IMG/VR virus record: IMGVR_UViG_3300012942_000055
Span: 1-53,717 of that record
Length of the DNA stretch: 53,717 nt
Source of the DNA: a virus
Lineage: Duplodnaviria > Caudoviricetes
Direction: 5' to 3' (one strand)
In this document: positions 5,985 to 21,495 of the stretch, in pieces
Layout: each line of letters starts with the position of its first letter
How positions within the stretch are numbered: position 1 is the stretch's first letter
Translations under genes and position numbers: made by a program
Notes under the pieces: model-generated
What the model was told of the DNA's origin: nothing
Seen by the model: the letters and a program-made list of their open reading frames with translations, nothing else
The model's database searches: none

Positions 5985-7595
5985 GTGAGCATTTTCAGTC
6001 GCCCTGTGCCTAGGGATGAGAACAACGATATAGTTGCTTCCCCCTATCGCGCACCACGATCCCTCACCGCAGCAGCCGTGAGAGTTGATCTAAACAACAA
6101 AACAGAAGTTGCTGCGCTCAAGGATCGCCGCCAAGAAGATAAATGGCAGGATGACGCTTGGGATTACTACGACCTCATTGGTGAGGTTAAGTACGCCGCA
6201 GGGCTTATTGCAAATGTCACCTCGCAGGTGCGTCTATACCCAGGATACGTCTTGGATGACGCATCTGCCCCTTCACACCTCAAAGATGTAAAAGACCTAC
6301 CCGAAGACATTAAAAATGCAGCATACTCTACTATTCGCCTCCTTGGCACGGGTAACGGAGGAATCCCAGGATTGCTCAACGACGCTGCACTCAACCTCTT
6401 CATCGCCGGAGAATGTTACCTCGTTCAAGAGCCAGCCTCTTTTGCGACGGGAACCGGAGAGAAGTGGTCTATTCGCTCTGTGGACGAGGTAGTCACCACC
6501 GCAGCAGGCCGTGGGAAGTCCTCAGTGTCCCTCAGGACGCGCCGAAACGCCAAGCCTGACCAGATGAAGCAACTGCCCAACACGGCCTACCTAGGGCGAA
6601 TCTGGCGCATGCACCCACGCTACTCGGATGAGGCTGACTCTTCGATGCGCGGACTACTTGAACTTATGGACGAACTCTTGCTTCTCAACAAGAGCGCCCG
6701 TAAAACTCTCAAGTCCCGCCTTAACGCCGGTATTCTTTACCTCCCAGACGACCTTTCCAACATTGCACAGTCCGACGGAGACACTGACGGCTCACAAGAC
6801 ACCTATGCCGAGGACTCAGACGACAACACAGATTCCTTCGAAGAAGAGTTGATTCAGGCAGCAATCACGCCAATCTCGGACGAAGGCTCCGCGTCTGCCG
6901 TTGTTCCGCTCATTGTTCGCGGTCCAGCCGATCTAGCAGACAAAATCAAGCACATTACGTTCGAGCAGACCTTTGACCCACAGCACACAGAACGTGCCGA
7001 CAAGGTTATGGACCGTATTCTTGCTGGTCTAGAGATTCCAAAGGACATTGTTGCTGGAATTGGTGACGCAAAGTACGCCAACGCTGTGCAAATCGAAGAA
7101 TCACTGTACAAGAGCCACATTGAGCCAATGATTTTGCTTATTGTTGACTCTCTTACCACGGTATTCCTCAAGCCAGTGCTCCGCGCGATGGGCTACGACG
7201 AAGATTTGATCGCCAACATCGTCATCTGGTATGATCCTAGCGCGATCACTACCAAGCCTTCCAAGTCTGAGTCAGCATCTGAGGGGTATGACAAGAAGAT
7301 CATCTCCGCAGAAGCATGGCGCAGGACTCACGGATTTGCTGAATCTGACGCACCTACCTCAGTCGAGGTTGCCCAGAGGATCGCAGTAGACCGAGGAATG
7401 CTCTCTGAGCCAATTACAGAGGCTCTATTCCAACTTCTCATCCCAGAACTTATGGACCGAGTACGCCAGCAGGCAATTCAACAATCGCCTTCTGGACAAT
7501 CTCTCGATCAAGTTCTCGATAACAACCAACCACAAGATACGACTCAAGATAACGCTGCGCAGGAGCAGCCACCGACTCAACTATTGGAGCCATAA
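5985..7595 (+). CDS. Portal protein
   Basis: 536 aa, first gene of the head module; WQDDAWDYYDLIGEVKY, RIWRMHPR and AVVPLIVRGP resemble actinophage portals. Confidence 0.8.
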   Translation: MSIFSRPVPRDENNDIVASPYRAPRSLTAAAVRVDLNNKTEVAALKDRRQEDKWQDDAWDYYDLIGEVKYAAGLIANVTSQVRLYPGYVLDDASAPSHLKDVKDLPEDIKNAAYSTIRLLGTGNGGIPGLLNDAALNLFIAGECYLVQEPASFATGTGEKWSIRSVDEVVTTAAGRGKSSVSLRTRRNAKPDQMKQLPNTAYLGRIWRMHPRYSDEADSSMRGLLELMDELLLLNKSARKTLKSRLNAGILYLPDDLSNIAQSDGDTDGSQDTYAEDSDDNTDSFEEELIQAAITPISDEGSASAVVPLIVRGPADLADKIKHITFEQTFDPQHTERADKVMDRILAGLEIPKDIVAGIGDAKYANAVQIEESLYKSHIEPMILLIVDSLTTVFLKPVLRAMGYDEDLIANIVIWYDPSAITTKPSKSESASEGYDKKIISAEAWRRTHGFAESDAPTSVEVAQRIAVDRGMLSEPITEALFQLLIPELMDRVRQQAIQQSPSGQSLDQVLDNNQPQDTTQDNAAQEQPPTQLLEP

Positions 7596-7598
7596 TAG

Positions 7599-10500
7599 AT
7601 GTATTCATCATTTGAACGCTCCGCCAATGCTAAGAAGCAACTCCGTGACAAGTACGGTAAGTGGATTTTCATGGGCGGACTTGGAAAATTTTTCGATGCC
7701 CTTTCAAATTCGTGGAAGACAGGAACCGTTGACGGAATCAACGGTGACTACGTACATTTCCACGGAGATGACGGACACGAATATAACGTTCACCGCTCAT
7801 ATGTAGAGTCAATTCCAAGCAAGGCACACCTACCGGGAACAAATACCCCTAACGTCTCTGCGCCTGCAAAAGCGCCAACTACTTCTGTCCCACACTACCA
7901 CGGAGCAGGAGACAGTTTCGTCTCTGCTCAGGCCACTCCAAAGAGCATGTACGGGGCCAATTACGTCGTTACCGTAGGAAAAGACGGACAAGTCTACCCT
8001 TCCTACATCAAAGACGGTGACGTGCTGTACGGTGACGGAAACGGCGGACTCGCCCGAGGCAGCAAGCCCATTCTTGGGGGCTCTAGTTTCAGCCACTTCA
8101 ACACAGATGGTGAAACCTGGACAGTTCAAGGAAAGCCTAAGGTTAAAGGCGGCTCAAATGGTGGTACCACCATCACAGCCGTGGACAAGGACGGTAACAC
8201 CAAGGAATTCTTTATTCCTAAGTCTGACACCCAGCCTTTTGCCCGTGCAGATGCACAAACAGACCAATACATCAAGCAGCAAGAAGATGCCAAGAAGGCA
8301 AGCATTCCTACAAATACAAAGGCAACTACGGAACCAAAAGCAGACACCGACGAGATTACCGACGCATCTTCTTGGAAGAAGACCGGAAACCTCGGAGGGT
8401 CTAATGGTGCTGCCATCTATGAAGACGAGGATGGAAACAAGTACGTCCTCAAATTCCCACCGTCAGAGTCTCACGCCAAGAATGAAGTTCTAGCCAGCCG
8501 TCTTTACGGTCTCGCTGGCGTGCCTATGCCACACTATGAACTTGCGTCTCGTGATGGCAAACTCGGTGTCTATTCCCCATACATGGAAGACATTGACACC
8601 AATGGGCTTAACAGTGCACTTAACAAGAACGACAGCAAGTACCTAGACAAACTCCGTGAAGATTTCGGAGCAGACGCCTGGCTCGCAAACTGGGACGTTG
8701 CAGGACTTGCAAATGATAACGTAATCTCTGATAAAGACGGAGACCCTATTCGTGTTGATCCAGGTGGCTCGCTCATTTACCGCGCACAGGGCTCTCCTAA
8801 GGGTGCTGCATGGAACAAGGACGCGAATGAGTGGGAAACACTACGCGACTCTTCTACGTCTCCGCAAGGCTCAAAAATCTTCAATGGAATGTCAGACGAG
8901 CAACTAAAGGATTCTGCCCAAAAGGTTGCTAACATTTCTGATGCGGATATCGACTACACAGTAGATTCTGTTGGACTCTCCGACAAAGATGCAGCCGACA
9001 TGAAGGCTACCCTCAAGGCACGTCGAGACGCTATTGCCAAAAAGGCTGGCGTTACCCCGCATCCAGACGAGGATTCTCTCGGAGCAAAGGCACAACTTCC
9101 CGCCCCAACTTCCACTGAGAACAAGTCCTACAAGGAATTCCTCACTGATAACCACCTAGATGACAACAACGCCGCAACTGCGTACGTTAAGCACTATGCG
9201 GAAGACGGTAATGCACCAGAAATCTCTACCGATAACTACGTCCCACAAGACGGAGATATCGTACAGATTGGTGACAAGTCCTACGTTGTTGGCACAAACT
9301 CTATCCTTGATGATCAAGATAAAGTGCATCTACAGCGTGCAGGACTTTCCACCCCAGGTAAGGGCTCATCTGCCAAAAAACCAGACGGCGGTTCAGTCGT
9401 CTCCAAGTCCGACCTTACCCCTGACAAGGCTTGGCGTCCAGGTGCAAGTAAAGAACAAGCAAAGGCTGAGTTAACACCTGAGGCAACTAGCGATACCCAA
9501 GAACAGCAATTCCACGTACTACCGTCAGATCAGCGCGGTAAGTCCGGAGACGGTTACCACGAATCTGGTCCTTGGGGTAAGTACGGTGCATCTGGCGTGC
9601 TCATTCACGCTCAAGATACCGATAAGTACTACATCGTACAGCGCGGAGGATTTGTTTCATCCAACAAGGGTAAGTGGCAACTTCCTGGTGGGGCGATGGA
9701 AGAACACGAGAACCCATATCAGGGTGCTTCTCGTGAACTCACCGAAGAAACCTCTTTCACTGAGGATGACCTCAAAGACCTTTCCCACGCCGGAGACGTA
9801 GTTTTCGACAATGGAAAGGGCTGGCAATACACCAACATTGCGGCCAACATTCCTAATGAGAAAGATATTACTGTTGACCCTAAGGAGTCCGCAGACGGCA
9901 AGTGGGTTTCCGCAGATGAACTCAAGCAAATGCGTGATAACGGAGAACTTGTCCCAGCATTTTCAAGCAACCTAGACAACATTCTCGCAAAGTACAACGA
10001 ACCAGACAATACCCCTGAGGTCGAGCACATTTCCGAAAAGGAAGCAGAAGATGTTGCTGATGCACCGCAGACTCCAAAGGCAGAGATTTCCAACATTCCT
10101 GAGATTGGGTATGATGAAGTCAATGATGTTGTAGCCAACCACGCAGATGAGGGTGGATCACAGGCTCCTGCCGACTACAATCTCCCAGATGGTACACACA
10201 TTTCCATCGATCCAGGAGACGAGGACCACTTTGTTGTGCACTCAGACCCAGAAGGTAAAACTCTTAATACTTATTCAAAAGAAGAAGCAACTAATTCTGA
10301 CTTTGACCAAGTTCTAGAGAATTCTGCATTCGGCTCCGAAGCACCAGACCGTGTGGAAAAGTCCGCACCACGTGTTTCCCCAGACGCCAACGACCTTGAC
10401 TCTCTTGCCGCAGGTGATGTAGTCAAGTTGTCCGATGCTGCTGGCAACAAGGTATTCATCAAGCAACCAGATGGCACATTCGAAGCCTCCTGGCTCCCTG

Positions 10501-13500
10501 ATGACCACAAAAACAAATACCAAACATCTGACCAGATTCACGCTGTTGCAGCCTACACCGGCCAAGATGTTCAGGTTGTCAAGGAAACAGAAGCAAAGGC
10601 AGATGTTCCAGAAGAAGCGACGCCAACGCCAGACACCACCCCTGCTGCATCTGAGGGTCTACAGGACTTCTCTGGCATTTCTGACAAGGACTTCTCTGAC
10701 TGGGTAGATGGGCTCAACCCAAACGATTCTGTTACTATTCACGATGATGACTATAACAACAATGAGACCTTCTACAAAGGCGGAGATGACGAGTGGTTTG
10801 CATCCGGCGACACACAAGGTGAATACCCATTTTCAGATCAGTACATCAAGAACCACAAAGATGATGTAGTTGCGTTTGAGTCTTCCAGCGGAGCACCACA
10901 ATCGTCTGCTCCTTCAACAGAACAGGCACCCGAGCCTGAGCCTGAAACACCGCAGGCCCCTGCCGCTACTGCCACACCAGATGTAGCCAAGACAATTGAC
11001 GGAATCAACTACGACTCCAACGGAGACGCTTGGGTTCCAGACAAGTCCGGTAATGCTATTTCTCTCGGTACTGTTGTCAAGAACAAATCTGGCGAACTCG
11101 GTAAGGTAGATTACATCCAAAAGGGTGGAAAGAAAGTACGTGTCAAGACAGAAGATGGAAACACCAAATTCTGGAATGCACACATGATCGATACCCAAGA
11201 CGATGCTGCGTTCACCGAGAAGGACTCTCCATATCAAGTCCACACCGACACTAATGGAGAGAACTACGTCAAGACATTTGACGGAGAAAATCTCTACGTA
11301 GGTGATGAGGCAAAGACCGAGGGCAAGACTGGAATCAGCGGTAAGGTAGTAGGTTTTGCCAAGGGCGGAGAATTCGTTCTCATTGAAGACGCCAAGACTG
11401 GTGACGTTAAGCCACGTAAACTTGACAAGGTTCAAAAGACCAAGGCAAATCACGCTGATGTTCCTGAGGCAGAAGTTCCTGCGTCCAATACACCAGAGGA
11501 AGAGACTCCAAATGCTGAACTACAGCCAGGAGATAAAATCACCTCAGTAGCACCACTTGCTGACCTGCCAGTTGGGTCACAGATTAATTACGTAGGTAAC
11601 AAAGGCACAGTCACATACGTCAAGCAGGAAGATGGAAGTTGGAACGGAAAAGGCAATAACGGCACACCTGACTACTTTGACGACGATGCATTCTCTAATG
11701 CTGCAAAGCAAGGCAAACTAGAGTACAGCGGCATGTCTGAGGCTTCGCCTGCACAGCCTGCACCTGAACCTGGCACCAAAGTACCATCTGATGAAGACTT
11801 CAAGAACTACCCAGTAGGTACGGTTGTCACTCACAAGGACCAGTACGGCCCTGCCACAACATATACCAAAGTTTCAGATGACTCATGGGAAAGCGGGGAC
11901 ACCAAGGATATCCACGATTGGGCCTTTGCTGGCGCAATCAAGGAAGGTACCTTGTACACGGGCGAAGAAAAAGACCACCCCGGCGTACAAGAAGAAAATG
12001 CTACCCCTGAACCTGCCGAATCTACAGAAACACCTGAAACGGGTATTTCCATTTCTTCTGTAGAAGAGGTAGCCAACCTACCAGAAGGCTCCTACGTTGA
12101 GGGCAAGAACATGTGGGGGGAGACTCAGGCATACGTTAAGATGGGCGACGGTAAGTGGCACATGGCGTATCCAGACGGATATCTCTCTTCTGGTGTGTGG
12201 CCGGATTCGGCTATTGCAGTTCTAGATGACGCTCAAAAGAAGGATATGCCAGATCATGTCCAGTACACACCATCTGTAAATACAGAGCCAGGTGCTCAGG
12301 TAGATTCTGTGCAAGTCCTCAAGGCTATGCCAACTGGAACTAAAATCTCTGTAGACGGCCTTGGAAACTTCACCAAGGATTACGATGGTTCATGGCAGTC
12401 TGATGACATTAATGAGCCACCTAATGAAAGTGAAGAATTTGCTTCTCTCGCAAAGGACGGTAAAATCCACGTTGCAGGGGAAAACACTGCCATAGAGCCT
12501 GGGACTACTATCAACGACTATGAAACCTTCAAGGGACTGCCTGTTGGCACTAAAGTAACAGCAGGAAATGTAGGTAATGTGTATGAGAAGCAGGCAAACG
12601 GTGACTGGAAAGTAGGTAACGGTTCTGAGGCTCAATTCCCTGATCAGGCATTTGAGAATGCTGTAAACAACGGTACTGTGAAAACTGTGGGGGATGCTCC
12701 TGTTGCCGAGGCTACCGCAATCGATTCCGGACCTTCCATCAAGGGTGCCGGTAACGCTGACCTGCACGTTGGCGACACCGTAACCAAATCTCCTGGCGGT
12801 AAGAAAGAATCAACCGGAAAGATCGTAGAGATTTCCGATGACGGCGTTCACGTTGTCATGGAACAGCAAGGCACCGGAAAGCACATTCCTTACGTTGCTA
12901 AGCACCTTCACCTCAAGGAAAAGGGAACACAAACTTCTGCCCCTAAGACTCCACAGCAGGCTGAGATTTCCAAGGATGCTCCGGAATTCGTAGCGCCACC
13001 TAAGAAGCCATCAGCAGCCACCACTGACGTTAATTCTCCGTGGTACGGTAAGCCAAAGCCTGAGGCACCTATTGCCGCAGAAACTGAGCAAACTTCTTGG
13101 GTTCCTGATGATTTCCTCAAAGAAATTGAAGATCGATACAAGGCTAAGATTCGCCCAGAATGGACAAAAGACTCCATCCAAGAATCTAGTAAGTGGTCTT
13201 TGGTTAAGAAGGCAATTGACACGGGTGACGTAGACACAATCAATTCTCTCCACCAATCACAACTTATCAGTGATGAAATGCACCAAAAAACTTTGGCGCA
13301 TATCGAACAGGCTAAGGCAAAGATTGAGCAAGAGAAGAAGGTGTTTGCTGAACTACAGAAGCAACACAATGAAGACCTCAGTGCGTGGAAGGCTGCAAAT
13401 GGTGTATCTTCCCAGACAGGATTTGACGATCTTCCAGAAATGTCTACGGAGAACTTCTATGGTGGACCTGCCGACTGGAACAAGGCACACTATGGAACTC

Positions 13501-14834
13501 CAACAGTCAACTCTGCTTTTGATAAGGTAAATAGCAGTAATGCGGCAGCAATTCACACCGTATCCGTTGCCACTGATTCTTCTGATATCGAAGACCTTGA
13601 TGTTCAAGTTTCTCGCGTCATCGATAAAAACGGAAATGAAGTTCTTGCACTTAAGTTCAAGTTGTCTCCAAAGGCCGGAGATGAATTCAACAAGACTGTT
13701 GGAAACATTGAAGGCGTAGATGTAGCCAGTGAACTTCAACTAGATCAGACTGAACTTAGTTCAAACGGGCTTGTTAAGTACACGGGACTTAGTGCATGGA
13801 CTTCACACAAGGGCAAGACTTACCGCTGGACCGATCAAGAAACCGGAGCACAATTCACGTTCTCCCACGACACCGGAGCCACAACGAAACTTAACCCAAC
13901 AGCGGTTCACAATCGTGTTCAGGTATTCCTACCAACAACTGCAACAGCAGAGGACTACCAGAAGGTTCTTGAGAAACTTGGTGTCAAGAGTGCTGCCCCA
14001 GCCTCCGAAGGAGACATTGAAGACTACATCAAGCACCGTATGGTTACTTTGATGGGAAGTAAGACTAACCCACTTGCACGCTATACTCCGCAGCAACTTA
14101 ATACCGAACTTGCCGCTATTAAGGCTGAGTATGGTGTGGATTGGACAGATATGAAGTTCTCTACAGATACTTCTGGTAGAGTACGAGTATTCCTTCCTGA
14201 TGCTGCAACTGATAAAGTTATTGAAAAGACTAATTTCAACGGCCTTTATCACAACTTGTCAAGCGCAGGCCACCTAGAGCAAATGCTCACAAGTGATAAG
14301 GCAGGTCTTATTGCAACAACCGACCGTTGGTCTGAGGGCCTTGGTGGGCACGGTATGTCGTCTGCTTCTGACATTAGTGAAGGAAGTTCGGACTACACAT
14401 TCCACAAGGTCAATCCTTCTGAGGTTGTTGCCGGTGCAAAGAATCCATTTGACAGTTATGCGCCTAAGATCGTAGCGCACCCTAAGGCGATTGCACGCCG
14501 TATGGATATTTACGGAAATGCTGGTGACTCATTTGGAAAGCACTCGACTGGGACCGATGTGTACTCTCTTATGGGTAACAAGTACACGTATGAAATTATG
14601 ATGAAGCACGGCATCGATCTTTCAGATATTTGGTTCATCACCATGTCTGAGTCTGATAGACAAGCGCTTTTGTCCAAACTCAAGGCTAGAGGTATTACTG
14701 AAATTAATGGTCTACCGATTGACAACTTCATCATTTCACACGGTATGACCATTCCTGAGGTCGATGAATCTCAGTGGAGCACCGACTACATGGCCGGTGC
14801 CTCTGCTCCGCCTTCCAGTGGCGGAGTTGCTTGA
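7599..14834 (+). CDS. Giant multidomain head-associated protein: HipA/PI3K-like kinase fold + Nudix hydrolase + repeated beta modules + ART-like C-terminus
   Basis: 2411-aa ORF between portal and protease. Kinase-like motifs GGSNG/YVLK/NEVLA/DAWLANWD/RVDPG; Nudix box GAMEEHENPYQGASRELTEET; C-terminal LYHNL..GLIAT..DYTF..YEIMMK. Confidence 0.8.
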   Translation: MYSSFERSANAKKQLRDKYGKWIFMGGLGKFFDALSNSWKTGTVDGINGDYVHFHGDDGHEYNVHRSYVESIPSKAHLPGTNTPNVSAPAKAPTTSVPHYHGAGDSFVSAQATPKSMYGANYVVTVGKDGQVYPSYIKDGDVLYGDGNGGLARGSKPILGGSSFSHFNTDGETWTVQGKPKVKGGSNGGTTITAVDKDGNTKEFFIPKSDTQPFARADAQTDQYIKQQEDAKKASIPTNTKATTEPKADTDEITDASSWKKTGNLGGSNGAAIYEDEDGNKYVLKFPPSESHAKNEVLASRLYGLAGVPMPHYELASRDGKLGVYSPYMEDIDTNGLNSALNKNDSKYLDKLREDFGADAWLANWDVAGLANDNVISDKDGDPIRVDPGGSLIYRAQGSPKGAAWNKDANEWETLRDSSTSPQGSKIFNGMSDEQLKDSAQKVANISDADIDYTVDSVGLSDKDAADMKATLKARRDAIAKKAGVTPHPDEDSLGAKAQLPAPTSTENKSYKEFLTDNHLDDNNAATAYVKHYAEDGNAPEISTDNYVPQDGDIVQIGDKSYVVGTNSILDDQDKVHLQRAGLSTPGKGSSAKKPDGGSVVSKSDLTPDKAWRPGASKEQAKAELTPEATSDTQEQQFHVLPSDQRGKSGDGYHESGPWGKYGASGVLIHAQDTDKYYIVQRGGFVSSNKGKWQLPGGAMEEHENPYQGASRELTEETSFTEDDLKDLSHAGDVVFDNGKGWQYTNIAANIPNEKDITVDPKESADGKWVSADELKQMRDNGELVPAFSSNLDNILAKYNEPDNTPEVEHISEKEAEDVADAPQTPKAEISNIPEIGYDEVNDVVANHADEGGSQAPADYNLPDGTHISIDPGDEDHFVVHSDPEGKTLNTYSKEEATNSDFDQVLENSAFGSEAPDRVEKSAPRVSPDANDLDSLAAGDVVKLSDAAGNKVFIKQPDGTFEASWLPDDHKNKYQTSDQIHAVAAYTGQDVQVVKETEAKADVPEEATPTPDTTPAASEGLQDFSGISDKDFSDWVDGLNPNDSVTIHDDDYNNNETFYKGGDDEWFASGDTQGEYPFSDQYIKNHKDDVVAFESSSGAPQSSAPSTEQAPEPEPETPQAPAATATPDVAKTIDGINYDSNGDAWVPDKSGNAISLGTVVKNKSGELGKVDYIQKGGKKVRVKTEDGNTKFWNAHMIDTQDDAAFTEKDSPYQVHTDTNGENYVKTFDGENLYVGDEAKTEGKTGISGKVVGFAKGGEFVLIEDAKTGDVKPRKLDKVQKTKANHADVPEAEVPASNTPEEETPNAELQPGDKITSVAPLADLPVGSQINYVGNKGTVTYVKQEDGSWNGKGNNGTPDYFDDDAFSNAAKQGKLEYSGMSEASPAQPAPEPGTKVPSDEDFKNYPVGTVVTHKDQYGPATTYTKVSDDSWESGDTKDIHDWAFAGAIKEGTLYTGEEKDHPGVQEENATPEPAESTETPETGISISSVEEVANLPEGSYVEGKNMWGETQAYVKMGDGKWHMAYPDGYLSSGVWPDSAIAVLDDAQKKDMPDHVQYTPSVNTEPGAQVDSVQVLKAMPTGTKISVDGLGNFTKDYDGSWQSDDINEPPNESEEFASLAKDGKIHVAGENTAIEPGTTINDYETFKGLPVGTKVTAGNVGNVYEKQANGDWKVGNGSEAQFPDQAFENAVNNGTVKTVGDAPVAEATAIDSGPSIKGAGNADLHVGDTVTKSPGGKKESTGKIVEISDDGVHVVMEQQGTGKHIPYVAKHLHLKEKGTQTSAPKTPQQAEISKDAPEFVAPPKKPSAATTDVNSPWYGKPKPEAPIAAETEQTSWVPDDFLKEIEDRYKAKIRPEWTKDSIQESSKWSLVKKAIDTGDVDTINSLHQSQLISDEMHQKTLAHIEQAKAKIEQEKKVFAELQKQHNEDLSAWKAANGVSSQTGFDDLPEMSTENFYGGPADWNKAHYGTPTVNSAFDKVNSSNAAAIHTVSVATDSSDIEDLDVQVSRVIDKNGNEVLALKFKLSPKAGDEFNKTVGNIEGVDVASELQLDQTELSSNGLVKYTGLSAWTSHKGKTYRWTDQETGAQFTFSHDTGATTKLNPTAVHNRVQVFLPTTATAEDYQKVLEKLGVKSAAPASEGDIEDYIKHRMVTLMGSKTNPLARYTPQQLNTELAAIKAEYGVDWTDMKFSTDTSGRVRVFLPDAATDKVIEKTNFNGLYHNLSSAGHLEQMLTSDKAGLIATTDRWSEGLGGHGMSSASDISEGSSDYTFHKVNPSEVVAGAKNPFDSYAPKIVAHPKAIARRMDIYGNAGDSFGKHSTGTDVYSLMGNKYTYEIMMKHGIDLSDIWFITMSESDRQALLSKLKARGITEINGLPIDNFIISHGMTIPEVDESQWSTDYMAGASAPPSSGGVA

Positions 14835-14861: not shown

Positions 14862-15599
14862 ATGCCAACTATTAACCAAGCAGACCTCTCAGAAGCACTC
14901 GTAGGCCCCTTCGTGGGGCCTGCGGGCACTATCTCAGAAGGTCCATTCGTAATCAATCACAACAACGTTGAGTCATTTGGGGCACACCTCATGCAAGACG
15001 GGGAGAACATCACTGTATTTGATGGAAACACCGTGAGAGAGTTCAATGACAAATATGCTGTCACAGTTTCCGATGACACAATTCAGTTTGATAGTGATTT
15101 CTATGACTCACACTACACTCTTCGTCCTGTAACACTTGCAGACCAGGCTATACTTTCTTCTGGAAGTACAGATGCAACTACTGATGCTGAATTTGCAGAA
15201 AGCATTTATTACGGCCTACTACAAAATGGTCTTCTCGGAGACGAGACCGCAGATTACCCACAAAACGGAGATAATGTGACAACGCAACCAGTTACCGCAG
15301 CAGCGGCAACACCAGAAGATCGTGCCGAAGGCTCAACCATCTATGTTCTCGTAGATGACGATGGGACCACGGTGACCGATCTTATGAAAACAGATGCCAA
15401 TGGCTACTATGTTCGTGACAACGAGACATGGCAGGCACTTGACCCTGACGCAGATGAAGAATCTGATCCCCAGTATTTCGACAAAGACTGGATCAAGGTC
15501 AATGCTGATGCAATTGAGCAGTATGATGACGATGTGGCTTCAAAAGACACACTAAACAAGGATGAGTTTTCGCAGTACATCATCCCTTGGTCTGTGTGA
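14862..15599 (+). CDS. Acidic head-module protein (245 aa)
   Basis: AGGA SD; its C-terminal module resembles two modules of the 660-aa neighbour. Confidence 0.8.
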   Translation: MPTINQADLSEALVGPFVGPAGTISEGPFVINHNNVESFGAHLMQDGENITVFDGNTVREFNDKYAVTVSDDTIQFDSDFYDSHYTLRPVTLADQAILSSGSTDATTDAEFAESIYYGLLQNGLLGDETADYPQNGDNVTTQPVTAAAATPEDRAEGSTIYVLVDDDGTTVTDLMKTDANGYYVRDNETWQALDPDADEESDPQYFDKDWIKVNADAIEQYDDDVASKDTLNKDEFSQYIIPWSV

Positions 15600-15639: not shown

Positions 15640-17622
15640 GTGGCAGAATTAGTTAGGATTTCCAGGGAAAATTCAGATTCCCTCGTTCTACGTGACGGAA
15701 GAAAGTATTTCGTCTATAGCGAAGGCAAAGTTTCAGCCTTCTCGACCCTACGTTCTGCCACCTCCCTCGGCACATGGCGCGTTCCGTCTGCCGGAGAAAA
15801 AGAAGGCTTTAATCTAGAAATGGCAAACAAAGCAATTAATAAGGCTGCGGCAGAGAAAACATATCGAGTACCAGCAGCAATTCAGCAAACACTGAGCAAT
15901 TCCATCACGGCAGGGTCTTTCATTGATCCTCACGATGTAGCACACGCAAGTGCACTTGCCTCAGGCAAGCCAGTAACTTTCGCAGCAATCAACTGGTTGA
16001 AGAACTATTTCGACACAACCAATAGAGAATTTGCTATTCGCGGAGGCGAAGCGGCACAGGCTTGGGCAGATAAGTTCGAGGCACCAATTACAGCCGCAGG
16101 ATTTGTTGCTCAAGACGACATGGAATATTTTGGTGTCGGACCTGACCCACAAAATCCATCCCAAGTTGAGCGTCTAGTGGCAACTGATCCAGACGACAAC
16201 GTATACATCTGGACAAACGGAGACTTTGCAGTTTCTCCGAACTCCATTGATGAACTAGACTTCCCATCGGTTATTTCCATCTCCCCAGACGATGCTAAGG
16301 CACTTTCTGATTGGATTGATGACCCAAACCATGATGGTGATTTGTTCGAACTACAGGACACCGACCCAGAAGAGCGTAATCTTGTCACTCTCGCATACTC
16401 AGAAATTGACTGGGAAGAGATTGACCGCCTAGAGATGGCCTCTAATGCAATTAACTACACTCCTGAGGAACGTAGTGAAAATGCAGGACGCCAGCAACGC
16501 TCTAATGACGGCAAGTTTGGTGGGCCACAAGTTCCTAAGGGTACGTCACTCAACTCGGCCATGAAGGCACGTCTCGCTGAGGCACTTGATCTTGTAGAGA
16601 ACCCGGCAGAGCGCATTGCACAGTACATTGCTTCCCTCACTGAGCAGCCTCCTACCCCCGAGCCACAAGACAGCGCCGCACCTGCACCAACAACAGCAGG
16701 TGGATTCTCCGCAGAGTTCCTAGCAAAATTAGATAAGTTTGCAGTAACGGACGCTCCCACAGAAGACGCAGCACCAGCGCCGGAAGAAACACCAGAAAAT
16801 ACTCCTGATGCTCCGCTTTATTTCGCCAAGGTAGACCCAACAGACCACACCGCAGTTCTCGACGTAATTGCCATCGTTAATGACAATGGTGTTGCAACTG
16901 CTTGGAAGCGTTCTGGTGGGACTTGGGTCGCTGCCCCAGATGACCTAGCGGACCTAGAGGGATCAACACCTCCACCAGTTGTAGAACTTTCAAATGATGA
17001 CACAACAAAGGCAGTGCTAGCACAAGTTGATCAGTTTGATTCTTCCTCACAAAGTGATGCAGAGAATCCTGACAATGAGTCTACTATTACGGCATCTGCC
17101 GCAGAACTTACAGACTACTCTAAGAAGCAGCGTGAGCACGATTCCAAGAAGGGAATCGCACTTCCAGATGGTTCCTTCCCAATCCGAAACGTCACTGATC
17201 TAAAGAACGCAGTGAAAGCATTCGGGCGCACAACAGACGCCAAGAAGGCAGAAGTAAAAAAGCACATCAAAAAACGTGCTCGTGCCCTCAACCGTAATGA
17301 CCTCATCCCCGAGGACTGGAAAACCGCATCAATATTCGATGATAGCCACCTATCCCCGCTCTACGGCGAATATGGTGAAGTTATCGCAATGGTTGCTGCT
17401 GCACCGGGCCGAGGTAATGAAGAAGCCTTGCGCCGCTATTGGACAGTTGGAAAGGGCGCAGCAAAGATTCGCTGGGGCACCAAGGGAGACCTTACTCGTT
17501 GCCACCGTCACCTAGAAAAGTACATTCCAGGAAGAAGTTGGGGATTCTGCCAGAATCTTCACGAGCGAGTATTTGGCATGCCAAACGCCACACATGACAA
17601 ACTAACAGGACAAGATAAGTAA
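15640..17622 (+). CDS. Multidomain head-module protein (660 aa) including a DUF6582-like domain
   Basis: GGAG SD + GTG start; DGSFPIRNVTDLKNAVKAFGR..HIKKRARAL domain; C-terminal LRRYWTVGKGAAKIRWG..C..C module. Confidence 0.8.
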   Translation: MAELVRISRENSDSLVLRDGRKYFVYSEGKVSAFSTLRSATSLGTWRVPSAGEKEGFNLEMANKAINKAAAEKTYRVPAAIQQTLSNSITAGSFIDPHDVAHASALASGKPVTFAAINWLKNYFDTTNREFAIRGGEAAQAWADKFEAPITAAGFVAQDDMEYFGVGPDPQNPSQVERLVATDPDDNVYIWTNGDFAVSPNSIDELDFPSVISISPDDAKALSDWIDDPNHDGDLFELQDTDPEERNLVTLAYSEIDWEEIDRLEMASNAINYTPEERSENAGRQQRSNDGKFGGPQVPKGTSLNSAMKARLAEALDLVENPAERIAQYIASLTEQPPTPEPQDSAAPAPTTAGGFSAEFLAKLDKFAVTDAPTEDAAPAPEETPENTPDAPLYFAKVDPTDHTAVLDVIAIVNDNGVATAWKRSGGTWVAAPDDLADLEGSTPPPVVELSNDDTTKAVLAQVDQFDSSSQSDAENPDNESTITASAAELTDYSKKQREHDSKKGIALPDGSFPIRNVTDLKNAVKAFGRTTDAKKAEVKKHIKKRARALNRNDLIPEDWKTASIFDDSHLSPLYGEYGEVIAMVAAAPGRGNEEALRRYWTVGKGAAKIRWGTKGDLTRCHRHLEKYIPGRSWGFCQNLHERVFGMPNATHDKLTGQDK

Positions 17623-19250
17623 TGAAAATACCTTCACGCAAAGAAATTAGGCCGGTAGACCCTGAGGTGGTCATTGCCTCTGCCGCGTCTGCCGCAAAGG
17701 CACTTGTTGCCTGCGGTGACGGATTTGAAATCACTTCCCCAGCAGACGCATCAGGCGGAGCATCTTTCCGCATCCCTGTCCTCATTCCTGAGGAAACAGA
17801 GACAGGAGATTCCCGAGAATTTGAGTTCGGTGCAATCACTTCTCGTGACCTCCCACTTCCACTTTACTGGCAGGTATTCACGGCAGAAGGACACAACGGT
17901 TCCGTTATCGTTGGTCGTATTGACTATGTAGAGCGCCTTGGCGGTCCTGAGACTGCGCCTTTGCCAATTGATGAGGGTACAGTGGCAGACGTATTAGACT
18001 CGGCTGCGGATACAGAAGAATCTGATGATCTTCTTCCACACGAATCTCCTATGTCCGGCTGGGGAAATGCTTACGGTGTATTTGACACTGGTGTATACGG
18101 TCGTGAGGCAGAGCGTCTTGTTCGCGGAGGATTCCTACGTGGAGTTTCCGCAGACCTTGACAAATTCGAGGCCGCTGTCCGTCCATCTATCGCAGACACA
18201 GAACTTGCGACTGACGATAATGAAGATGACAAGTCAGATGACGAGCACAAGATCAAGAATGACAAGATTGTTGTCACTCAGGCTCGTATCATGGGAGCAA
18301 CACTAGTCGGAAAACCAGCATTCCAAGAATGTACCATTGAAATTGTTGATACCCCATACGAAGAAGAATTACCAATCGAGGATGGTATGTACGAAGAAGC
18401 AGTAGATGACGACGATCTATATGAGGCATCTTTGGTCGCCAGTGCGGCTCCTGATGTTCCTCCACGTGATTGGTTCAAGAACCCAGGTCTTAAGGCTCCA
18501 ACTCCAATTACCGTAACGGATGATGGTCAAGTATTCGGCCACATTGCCGCTTGGCACGTAGACCACATTGGTCTACCACGTAACACAAAGCCACCACGTT
18601 CCTACTCTAACTACGCATACTTCCGTACGGGAGTTTTGCGTACAGATGATGGTACAGACGTTCCTGTTGGGCAACTCACGTTGGCCGGAGGACACGCAGG
18701 AATGGCTCTGTCAGCCCAGGCAGCCGTCAAGCACTACGACGACACAGCCTCGGCTATCGCGGACGTGGCAGCCGGTGAGGACGCCCACGGCATCTGGGTA
18801 GCAGGAGCACTACGCTCCACTGCTACAGCGGCACAGGTACGTGCTCTTCGTGCAAGTGCTCCATCAGGTGACTGGCGACCAATTAACGGTAGACTAGAAC
18901 TTGTTGCTGTATGTCAGGTTAACGTTCCAGGATTCCCAGTTGCACGTGCAATGGTCGCAGGAGGACAGGTCATGGCTCTCGTGGCAGCAGGTGCTAAGCC
19001 TCTTGCAGAGATTCGTGAATCTCGCCTCAGCACCCTAGAATCTCGTCTCGATAATCTAGAAGCGAAAGAACTAGAAGCAATCCGTGCAAGTGCACTTGAG
19101 GCTCTTGCTCCGCTTAAGACACAGCACGACACAGAATTGACTGCTAAAGCGGACAAGGCAAAGGAAGCAATTTTTGCCCTACGCGAATCACAGAATGCAG
19201 AGTTGCAGGCTCAAGCAGCAAAGGCCCGAGCAATCCTGCTCGGTGAGTAA
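17622..19250 (+). CDS. Capsid maturation (prohead) protease
   Basis: Directly before the capsid gene; GH..S.IVGRID, LRGVSADLD and GATLVGKPAF fit the HK97-type protease pattern; second domain with GHIAAW and SGDWR; C-terminal coiled coil. Confidence 0.75.
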   Translation: MKIPSRKEIRPVDPEVVIASAASAAKALVACGDGFEITSPADASGGASFRIPVLIPEETETGDSREFEFGAITSRDLPLPLYWQVFTAEGHNGSVIVGRIDYVERLGGPETAPLPIDEGTVADVLDSAADTEESDDLLPHESPMSGWGNAYGVFDTGVYGREAERLVRGGFLRGVSADLDKFEAAVRPSIADTELATDDNEDDKSDDEHKIKNDKIVVTQARIMGATLVGKPAFQECTIEIVDTPYEEELPIEDGMYEEAVDDDDLYEASLVASAAPDVPPRDWFKNPGLKAPTPITVTDDGQVFGHIAAWHVDHIGLPRNTKPPRSYSNYAYFRTGVLRTDDGTDVPVGQLTLAGGHAGMALSAQAAVKHYDDTASAIADVAAGEDAHGIWVAGALRSTATAAQVRALRASAPSGDWRPINGRLELVAVCQVNVPGFPVARAMVAGGQVMALVAAGAKPLAEIRESRLSTLESRLDNLEAKELEAIRASALEALAPLKTQHDTELTAKADKAKEAIFALRESQNAELQAQAAKARAILLGE

Positions 19251-19458: not shown

Positions 19459-21495
19459 GTGGATCGCATCAACGCTATGCTAGATCGTATTGGCGAACTA
19501 AGTGTTGACGAACTAAACGAACTTCGAGACGCAATTGTCACGGAATTCGAAACCGTTTCCAAAGAAGACCTAACTCGTGAGGTCGCTGATCAGATGACTA
19601 CTCTAGGAAATGCCGCTCAGGCAATCCGCGACGAGCAGTCACGTCGTGAGTCCGAAGCCGCTGACCTAGCCGCTGCACGTGATGCAGCCGCAGCACTCGT
19701 GGCCGGAGATGCATCAGAAGAAGCATCAGACGACTCGCCAGAAGAGGCAGAGGCAGCCGTTGCTACTGACGCCCCTGTAGATGACAACTCTGACGAAGAG
19801 GGCACATCTACTGACGACTCGACCGAAGAGGATGACGACCCTGCCGTAATTGCAGCCAAGAAAAAGAAGGTTGTAGTGGCAGAAGGCGACCCATCTGTAG
19901 CGTCCGTTACAGAGGAAACAGTTACCGAGGAAGTAGCCCCAGAGGCAGAACTTTCCGCAGAAACACCTGTAGAGGCAGAACTTTCAACTGCCGAAGGAAC
20001 ACAGGACGTTTACGACGCCGCTGAGCACCGTGAAGCAAAGGCCGAAGAGCCAGAAGTTTCAGAAGAGGTTGTTGAGCCAGTCGTAGAAGACAGTGCAGAA
20101 GATGCACAATCAGAAGAAACCCCAGACTCGGAGGAAGTAGCAGACGACTCCGAGGTTACTGATTCAAAGGATGACTCGGAGGAAGAAACCGTGACCGCTG
20201 CTGCTAACACAAATGGACTTGAAATTGAAGTTCCTGAGGACCGTCGCGTAGACGCCAAAGAGGTAACTGTTGCACCTGTTACAATTACAGCCGGTGCTGA
20301 CATTCCTGGTGTCTCTGCTGGTTCAGAACTTCCAAACCTACGTGCCGTTGCCCAGGCAATTATTGACCGCAAAAAGGGTATGGGACGTACATCTGGTGGA
20401 GACGGTGAACAGCACACAGTTGCTACATTCACCACACGCTTCCCAGAGAACCGTACACTCGTTTCAAACGACTATGAGGGTAACTCAAAGAAGGTTGAAG
20501 ACGTTATCGCACCTGAGGCACTTGTTGCTGCTGGTGGACTCTGCGCACCTGTAGAGGTATCTTACGACATTTTCGGTCTTGGTGAACTTGGCCGTCCAGT
20601 TCGTGACTCCCTCGCAGTATTCTCCGCAGACCGTGGCGGTATCCGCTTCGTAACCCCTCCAACCCTTTCTGACCTTAACGGTGCAGTTTCGCTTTGGACT
20701 CTACAGGACGACATTGACGCTGCAACAGAAGGTGCACCAGACCCAGTTAAGCCATGTATCCGAGTTGCTTGCGGTACTGAGGTTGTTGTCTACACAGACG
20801 CAATCCCACTCTGCTTGACCTTCGGTAACCTTGGTGCACGTACCTACCCAGAACTCGTAGAGCGTCACACCAAGTTGGGTATGATTTCCCACGCACGTTA
20901 CGCTGAGACTCGTCTTCTCACCCGTATCGGCTCCCTCTCCACCGCAGTTACTTCTGACAAGAAACTCGGTGCAGCACGCGACGTTCTCGTTGCTGTTGAC
21001 CAGGCCGCAGCCGCATACCGTAACCGCTACCGTATGAACCCTAACGAGAACCTACGTGTTATCTTCCCAGAATGGTTCAAGAATGCTCTCCGCGCTGACC
21101 TCGTTCGCCAACTCCCAGGAGACGGCCAGGACGTTGCGTTCAACCTCGCAGAGAACACAATTACCTCTTGGTTTGCTGCACGTAACATCAACGTTACATG
21201 GAGCCTTGATGGTGAGACCGGCCAAATTGCTGGAACTCAGGCATCCGGAGCACTAAACTCCTTCCCATCAACTGTTATCTGGTACCTCTTCGCTGAGGGA
21301 ACCTTCCTCTTCCTTGACGGTGGAACGCTTGACCTCGGTCTTGTCCGTGACTCCACCCTCAACGGCACCAACGACTACAAGATTTTCTTGGAGACATTCG
21401 AAGGTGTTGCCAAGGTTGGTATCGAATCACTACGTATTACTACACCTGTAGCAATCGCTGGTGCTTCTGCCGCAACTGTTAACACACTTTCCTGA
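19459..21495 (+). CDS. Major capsid (hexamer-type) protein with N-terminal coiled-coil/acidic scaffold region
   Basis: AGGAGG SD + GTG; acidic N-terminal ~245 aa; LVAAGGLCAP...LDGGTLDLGLVRDSTLNGTNDYKIFLETFEG resembles cluster-B-like actinophage capsid proteins. Confidence 0.85.
   Translation: MDRINAMLDRIGELSVDELNELRDAIVTEFETVSKEDLTREVADQMTTLGNAAQAIRDEQSRRESEAADLAAARDAAAALVAGDASEEASDDSPEEAEAAVATDAPVDDNSDEEGTSTDDSTEEDDDPAVIAAKKKKVVVAEGDPSVASVTEETVTEEVAPEAELSAETPVEAELSTAEGTQDVYDAAEHREAKAEEPEVSEEVVEPVVEDSAEDAQSEETPDSEEVADDSEVTDSKDDSEEETVTAAANTNGLEIEVPEDRRVDAKEVTVAPVTITAGADIPGVSAGSELPNLRAVAQAIIDRKKGMGRTSGGDGEQHTVATFTTRFPENRTLVSNDYEGNSKKVEDVIAPEALVAAGGLCAPVEVSYDIFGLGELGRPVRDSLAVFSADRGGIRFVTPPTLSDLNGAVSLWTLQDDIDAATEGAPDPVKPCIRVACGTEVVVYTDAIPLCLTFGNLGARTYPELVERHTKLGMISHARYAETRLLTRIGSLSTAVTSDKKLGAARDVLVAVDQAAAAYRNRYRMNPNENLRVIFPEWFKNALRADLVRQLPGDGQDVAFNLAENTITSWFAARNINVTWSLDGETGQIAGTQASGALNSFPSTVIWYLFAEGTFLFLDGGTLDLGLVRDSTLNGTNDYKIFLETFEGVAKVGIESLRITTPVAIAGASAATVNTLS

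Follow-up and report, generated by a model that had tools for sequence, protein, structure and literature searches.

A conserved peptide tag on giant and protease-associated head proteins of large actinobacterial phages, with a possible role in head incorporation

The loading of very large enzymes into a phage head, and their delivery from it, are to our knowledge known for a few models only: T4, P1 and the MuF phages. The capsid-targeting sequence (CTS) of T4 comprises about 10 residues, is strictly N-terminal and is removed by the gp21 protease after assembly. The C-terminal tail of the HK97 prohead protease and the cargo-loading peptides of encapsulins dock protease or cargo inside an HK97-fold shell. 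According to one study, the T4 internal proteins IPI–III and Alt share a short CTS peptide, are enclosed in the prohead and are injected (PMC9024508). The same study describes DarB of P1 (250 kDa), whose first 30 residues suffice to send a reporter into P1 heads and whose gene neighbors those of the portal and protease (open reading frames (ORFs) 10, 11 and 12), and it reports no consensus among the P1 Dar proteins (PMC9024508). In another paper, the MuF domain (Mu gpF, SPP1 gp7) is what anchors phage polyvalent proteins and MuF toxins to the head (PMC5512222). Here we describe a tag with a core of about 20 residues that occurs twice in a 53,717-nucleotide stretch of viral DNA (IMG/VR record IMGVR_UViG_3300012942_000055, positions 1 to 53,717; the window), which is a fragment of a large actinobacterial phage. 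One copy begins a giant protein and the other lies within a head-morphogenesis protein. The tag appears to be undescribed, and apparently is kin to known elements of packaged phage proteins, namely the short signals that target them to the capsid and the modules that anchor them to the head; no description of it was found in the open-access literature searched on capsid targeting, polyvalent proteins, actinobacteriophage virions and the named relatives of this phage.

The two copies and their carriers lie in the window as follows:
7599..14834, + strand: giant 2411-residue protein; NUDIX domain at residues 666-781, the only Pfam match in its 2411 residues
7599..7838, + strand: N-terminal module of the giant protein, in which a diverged beta-rich segment follows the tag; first row of the module alignment A3
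7602..7664, + strand: tag copy 1, residues 2-22 of the giant protein, YSSFERSANAKKQLRDKYGKW by translation
15640..17622, + strand: 660-residue head-morphogenesis protein, protease-associated; phrog_6439 (C-terminus) and phrog_21406
16456..16518, + strand: tag copy 2, residues 273-293 of the 660-residue protein, YTPEERSENAGRQQRSNDGKF by translation

The giant protein is a probable packaged polyvalent effector. Its ATG at 7599 is directly preceded by an in-frame TAG and has a GGAG about 11 nucleotides upstream; copy 1 therefore lies at the extreme N-terminus. A strictly N-terminal position as in T4 is thus seen for the giant copy (residues 2-22) and not for the copy in the 660-residue protein (residues 273-293), although the tag does resemble the T4 CTS, as presented in PMC9024508, in being a short peptide common to otherwise unrelated proteins.

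The sequence-only reading of this DNA had paired these two peptides and called them alike without gaps. Translation placed both peptides where they had been reported, and BLASTP aligned them without gaps at 10 of 21 identical and 13 of 21 positive residues. Were the pair all there was, a chance resemblance of two basic peptides would be a sufficient account: the E value of this single comparison is 0.58, which is within chance. A loose regular expression, R-x(1-5)-G-[KR]-[FW], found 4 matches in 45 ORFs of the window (1.1 expected from shuffles), and the full motif was present in only two of the four, the giant N-terminus and the copy in the 660-residue protein. The likeness is nevertheless more than chance, because the internal copy is conserved in its own family, profiles of one motif type detect the other, and the closest orthologue of the giant protein retains the tag. 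Contradicted by this cross-detection, by invariant positions that coincide and by intermediate forms, chance is an extremely improbable explanation. From the comparisons set out below, the two peptides are best read as homologous copies of one conserved tag with the core S/T-x3-R-S-x2-A-x2-Q-x-R-x3-G-[KR]-[FW].

Conservation of the internal copy was read from an alignment of the 660-residue protein with 24 homologues of 34-55% identity. Of the family's 51 invariant columns, 10 fall within residues 273-294 (Y273, E277, R278, N281, A282, Q285, R287, G291, F293 and G294), and the block has the consensus G-Y-S/T-P-x-E-R-S-x-N-A-x-R-Q-x-R-x3-G-K-F-G-G. On the side of the giant protein, its closest orthologue, P0182, keeps 18 of the 21 tag residues and diverges after about residue 40. 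The tag is thus a conserved element: the sequence-only reading had named a lack of conservation in orthologues as a refutation, but the motif is kept in those of both proteins. Talia1610 gp79, a homologue of the 660-residue protein, has the internal copy and a second, N-terminal copy, an arrangement that recurs in P0022.

The AlphaFold2 (AF2) model of the 660-residue protein has a mean predicted local distance difference test score (pLDDT) of 73.8. Tag copy 2 falls in a low-confidence linker, with block values of 55, 56 and 50 over residues 271-300 and segments below 50 on either side; the other highly conserved blocks of the protein (residues ~391-470 and ~601-650) are modeled as confident domains, with pLDDT of about 85-91. 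Strong constraint within a linker, if the linker is as predicted, is what one would expect of a short docking motif. Foldseek gave no match for the model in the PDB at E<=0.001; in a viral library, its only matches were homologues that bear the annotation of a capsid maturation protease or a morphogenesis protein.

Profile hidden Markov models (HMMs) link the internal type of the motif to the N-terminal type. In a search of 3250 stop-to-stop ORFs (472,551 residues), an HMM of the internal block only matched residues 1-21 of the giant protein at 18.3 bits (E 2.5e-4); the best unrelated match reached 5.0 bits (E 3.6). This HMM also matched, at E values of 7.7e-9 to 2.4e-3, the internal copies of a fused form of the 660-residue protein that is found in Big4 gp76 and in the loci L021, L022, L031, L036, L037 and L039; these copies read YTPEERSxxAxKQVRDKTG[KR]F and are followed by a barrel-like segment. 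From the other direction, an HMM of 75 strictly N-terminal modules, taken from proteins of more than 1000 residues, matched the fused-form internal copies at E values of 4e-5 to 1.8e-3, with an alignment that begins at YTPEERS, and matched residues 2-52 of the giant protein at 38.6 bits (E 1.8e-10). The giant N-terminus also scored 27.9 bits (E 2.8e-8 within the window) against a 22-column core HMM of 150 copies from other proteins. The positions that are near-invariant in 152 copies of the N-terminal type (S-17, R-13, Q-6, R-4, G0, K/R+1 and W/F+2) can be superimposed without gaps on positions that are invariant in the internal type. The starts of Talia1610 gp77 and Big4 gp74 are clearly related to the N-terminus of the giant protein, which itself looks like a hybrid of the two motif types. 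The flanks of the two copies had been called unrelated; this is so within the window, but not in the relatives, where a barrel-like segment comes after the internal copy as well.

In most carriers, the motif is only the first part of a module of about 80 residues, and it runs directly into a conserved W-I-E-M-G-G-G-V-K-F strand-turn-strand. The 21-residue motif of the sequence-only reading therefore holds as a shared peptide but not as the complete unit. When 1.84 billion representatives were searched with a profile of alignment A3 (26 rows, from 37 IMG/VR loci), 600 clusters matched at E<=1e-3, of which 272 reached E<=1e-10. For the best 150 of the 600 clusters (median length 2345 residues), the module starts within residues 1-40 in 100 cases, 41-150 in 3, 151-250 in 37 and 251-450 in 10, and two or three copies are present in 5 of the 150. 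N-terminal extensions of more than 100 residues precede the module in 49 representatives. For 39 of these 49, the best BLASTP match is a 194-residue protein of locus L034 (L034:2659-3240), which belongs to no PHROG family and is encoded between the portal and giant genes; the tag therefore starts at a gene-fusion boundary. The window lacks a counterpart of this 194-residue protein.

A Pfam scan of 16 carriers gave matches in 10 and none in 6. The enzyme sets of the carriers differ: NUDIX, UvrD helicase, ADP-ribosyltransferase, ArdC-N with MPTase-PolyVal, RNase T, Zeta-toxin-like, PI3/4-kinase-like and 2H domains were found, and relatives with the same tag have two to five domains (RNase T, UvrD, ArdC-N and MPTase-PolyVal in L016, for example). 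By the description in Iyer et al. 2017 (PMC5512222), they are classic examples of polyvalent proteins. The tag is thus mobile between different proteins. Neither the first 80 residues of the giant protein nor the internal block of the 660-residue protein is covered by a Pfam or PHROGs family, and Pfam scans gave no MuF (Phage_Mu_F) match in the giant or 660-residue proteins (E<=0.01) or in the 16 carriers (E<=0.001).

Searches beyond the IMG/VR loci were sparser in their returns. The first 300 residues of the giant protein, used in tblastn against 50,697 phage records, had no match at E<=1e-5; a more consensus-like module query of 60 residues matched 12 phage records. A pattern scan of one genome from each of 185,579 prokaryote species produced 76 pattern matches and no confirmed relative, a result that fits a module of virulent phages. 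The related-locus pattern search that started from the single 660-residue protein gave 18 pattern matches, none of them confirmed.

The segment that follows the tag is small and beta-rich, and it is possibly an SH3-like barrel. A PDB sequence profile search with the module returned nothing significant (best E 0.44). The best of the matches that resemble the motif, the baseplate hub gp26 chain of phage Milano (8fqc_C1), which contains a K-K-Q-x-R-D-x-x-G-R-F stretch, came up at E 0.74 and was treated as chance. Feature matches of the module in the Atlas were all below 0.9; one was to a cluster in which 30% of the members have SH3_1. That the motif is usually part of this 80-residue unit could mean that it serves as a structural cap only, being the first helix and strand of an inherited folded N-terminal domain, with the internal copy of the 660-residue protein as a relic. 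However, a relic would not keep 10 invariant columns at 34-55% identity in a predicted flexible linker that has no barrel, and we consider this explanation very unlikely.

The genes around the two carriers are those of a phage head. In addition to the carriers, the following were identified:
5985..7595, + strand: portal protein; phrog_776, E 1.9e-104; directly 5' of the giant gene
14862..15599, + strand: 245-residue protein, no tag, family unassigned; sits between the giant and 660-residue genes
17622..19250, + strand: head maturation protease, 542 residues; phrog_18402, phrog_859 and phrog_21470; C-terminus without the tag
19459..21495, + strand: major capsid protein; phrog_777 at residues 171-674

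The order portal, giant protein, 245-residue protein, 660-residue protein, head protease and capsid protein, established from the ORF list and the PHROG matches, is the same in Talia1610 and Big4. The nearest named relatives of the window are the ~190-kb Arthrobacter phages Talia1610, Mimi, Racecar and Atuin, and the more distant ones include the Microbacterium phages Big4 and Cece. Relatives of the 660-residue protein bear the annotation "capsid maturation protease". In several of them, the 660-residue protein and the protease are one gene of about 1350-1560 residues, and the internal motif is present in these fused proteins (Big4 gp76, with 1552 residues, and ORFs of 1347-1562 residues in the six loci named above). 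In the window, the stop codon of the 660-residue gene overlaps the start of the protease gene (17620-17624). Given this overlap and the fused genes, the pair in the window looks like a split protease polyprotein.

Head-gene association of the tag holds across the loci sampled. Of the 37 IMG/VR loci, 20 were selected for context and the upstream ORFs were scanned in 14; a phrog_776 portal lies zero to two genes upstream of the tag carrier in 11 of the 14, as it does in the window, Talia1610 and Big4. The three loci without an upstream portal are L039, L027 and L033. Five whole phage records each have two or three matches to the module. Talia1610 and Big4 have both of theirs inside the portal-to-capsid gene block, and in three whole IMG/VR records the matches are within 10-30 kb of one another. 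Some complete relatives have a second tagged giant near the first (G002:C1:67319-67537, in a frame of 5983 residues, and G003:C1:87713-87952, in one of 4419). In the lineage defined by the phrog_776 portal and phrog_777 capsid protein, then, the tag is on each giant polyvalent protein and on the protein that accompanies the protease or is fused to it, and the carriers are all encoded between the portal and capsid genes.

These features invite comparison with the described systems. As in the HK97 and encapsulin cases, a protease-associated protein has the same tag as the cargo; those peptides, though, are C-terminal and not known to be related in sequence, whereas the protease C-terminus of the window has no tag. 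The tag was not found at the C-termini of the portals or proteases of the lineage. As with MuF, the gene directly follows that of the portal, and the role would be to fix variable effector domains to the head; unlike MuF, the module has about 80 residues and no family name. DarB of P1 (PMC9024508) is a precedent: a short N-terminal signal on a very large, injected enzyme whose gene is near the portal and protease genes. P1 also appears to use a scaffold domain of its capsid protein, as the phage of the window seems to do. The differences from P1 are that this tag is common to two or three proteins per phage and to 600 clusters, unlike the Dar signals, and that it is known from sequence alone, whereas the P1 signal was proven by reporter fusion.

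The reading that we favor, and to which we give about even chances, is that the tag serves for head incorporation or handling and is read by a shared partner inside the procapsid. Acting as an address or handle, an exposed basic helix and short strand would dock their carriers onto a shared procapsid component, so that the carriers would be enclosed before DNA packaging and able to leave later with the DNA. Candidate partners are the portal, the protease complex and the N-terminal region of the capsid protein, which has a coiled coil and a very acidic, scaffold-like region of about 245 residues. We infer docking, packaging and the identity of the partner, as well as the cleavage considered below, from the arrangement of the sequences. 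A complex prediction of the module with one portal chain, rather than the 12-mer, had a score of 0.00 and a mark of 0.32, and it counts neither way. Portals of the lineage end in a variable, acidic, proline-rich tail (7480-7595 in the window), and a conserved L-x-E-P (LLEP, LMEP or LAEP) is found at or near the portal end in about half of 14 C-termini. This tail may be flexible and face the interior, and as such would be a candidate contact for the basic tag.

For the portable docking or packaging tag that the sequence-only reading had proposed, portability is borne out by the different enzyme sets, the multiple copies in 5 of 150 clusters and the start at a fusion boundary, as is the tie to head genes; docking and packaging have the conditional standing just given to them. 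That reading also gave as established a recurrence of short RxxxG[RK][FW] motifs in phage head-associated proteins, for which no source was found in the literature searched.

Several observations weigh against head incorporation as the function. Two tagged proteins are encoded away from head genes, between invertase-like and thymidylate synthase genes:
L027:1192-3285: non-head tag carrier, 697 residues; flanked by invertase-like recombinase and thymidylate synthase genes
L033:1873-4776: non-head tag carrier, 967 residues; in the same setting
Neither HMM of the N-terminal type, that of the 22-column core or that of the 75 modules, matches the internal copy of the window, and with the 22-column core HMM even the internal copies of the fused form reach no more than about 5 bits (E about 3). 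With the reciprocal search this weak, the link between the motif types therefore rests on the intermediates and on the hybrid-looking N-terminus of the window itself. The AF2 model of the 80-residue module is poor (mean pLDDT 53), with a helix at residues 4-12 and strands after residue 29. No virion proteome of any related phage was found in the literature searched. Finally, retention of the tag would be equally compatible with loading and with a function that comes afterwards (for example DNA binding, ejection or activity inside the host), and a basic helix with a small barrel is also reminiscent of a nucleic-acid-binding module.

The question of retention turns on a second, shorter motif, hydrophobic-T/V-A-A/S-A/G, which recurs in the portal N-terminus, the 245-residue protein, the 660-residue protein, the protease and the capsid protein. 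Its positions include:
6063-6077: portal protein, residues 27-31
16087-16101, 17086-17100 and 17389-17403: 660-residue protein, residues 150, 483 and 584
20191-20205: capsid protein, residues 245-249

These motifs are likely candidates for cutting sites of the head protease. All 6 of the 6 capsid proteins that were aligned strictly keep T/P-V-T-A-A/S where the acidic region ends; past that variable region, conservation begins with this motif. Three of the four sites in the 660-residue protein (residues 150, 483 and 584) lie in AF2 segments with pLDDT below 50. Site-like sequences also occur upstream of the tags: the consensus is L-T-A-D-A-T-G-Y in the 660-residue family (about 20 of 24 rows, read from the alignment) and A-A-G-G-N-S before the 152 copies of the N-terminal type. 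Because the candidate cuts are upstream of the tag, head-protease cleavage just ahead of many copies would leave the tag on the product, at its new N-terminus. This differs from the T4 CTS, as does the longer core of about 20 residues.

A tag that is kept on the product therefore keeps alive two rivals of head incorporation, a cutting signal and a DNA or ejection handle. In the first, the tag would be a processing element, an exosite of the protease or the P' side of a cut, that marks cuts in polyproteins and fused cargo and would not itself dock anything. The hydrophobic-T/V-A-A/S/D-A/G sites just upstream of most tag copies, together with the spread of the short motif over the head proteins, its place where the acidic region of the capsid protein ends and its low-pLDDT surroundings in the 660-residue protein, are what such an element would lead one to expect. 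Yet the candidate cut motif occurs without the tag in the capsid protein, the portal and the protease, and the tag is therefore not needed for recognition there; moreover, the giants of the window and of Talia1610 start directly with the tag and have nothing to cut off. We regard a pure processing role as rather unlikely.

In the second rival, the basic helix and small barrel would bind phage DNA, or a DNA end, in the head and tether the giant enzymes for exit or for immediate action in the host. The motif is strongly basic (R/K at -13, -10, -8, -4, -2 and +1 of the consensus); the tag would stay on the mature product if cuts are upstream; and one of the carriers outside the head genes, that of L033, has a ParB C-terminal-like domain. 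The beta-rich segment after the tag may be SH3-like, a weak point with an Atlas match below 0.9 and a poor AF2 model. Polyvalent proteins are injected along with DNA, according to PMC5512222. On the other hand, the 660-residue protein of the window has the tag without the barrel, and a protease-associated protein has no obvious need to bind DNA. That Q, G and the aromatic residues are invariant points to contact with a specific protein over charge alone, and Pfam and PDB sequence searches matched no nucleic-acid-binding family. A DNA handle is, in our view, quite unlikely.

Head incorporation can also be put in a broader form, which we hold more tentatively: across a large group of actinobacterial phages, the tag could be a general, transferable handle for loading and delivery. 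One head component would read every internal protein, cargo and protease complex alike, upstream cuts would free the tagged modules, and the handle would govern exit with the DNA. If that were true, these 25-80 residues would be enough to have any protein packaged and injected, and for many uncultured phages a list of injected proteins could be drawn up from sequence alone. Even in the narrower form, the tag would be a marker that reveals the packaged protein set across a whole phage lineage, and it points to a single reader inside the procapsid as a search target. It is short enough to be a handle for packaging tests in phages whose hosts are harmless soil actinobacteria, and it offers an annotation for the 660-residue family and for the giant N-termini, both of which currently have no family name.

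A second element common to these head proteins is a small beta-rich unit, approximately Y-F-x-x-V-D ... D-G-x-W. It is present in the 245-residue protein and at residues ~393-432 of the 660-residue protein (16816-16935 in the window), and it recurs in the giant protein at residues ~934-969, 1334-1348 and 1500-1526; the BLASTP pairing of all these stretches is weak. Talia1610 gp78 contains a similar stretch.

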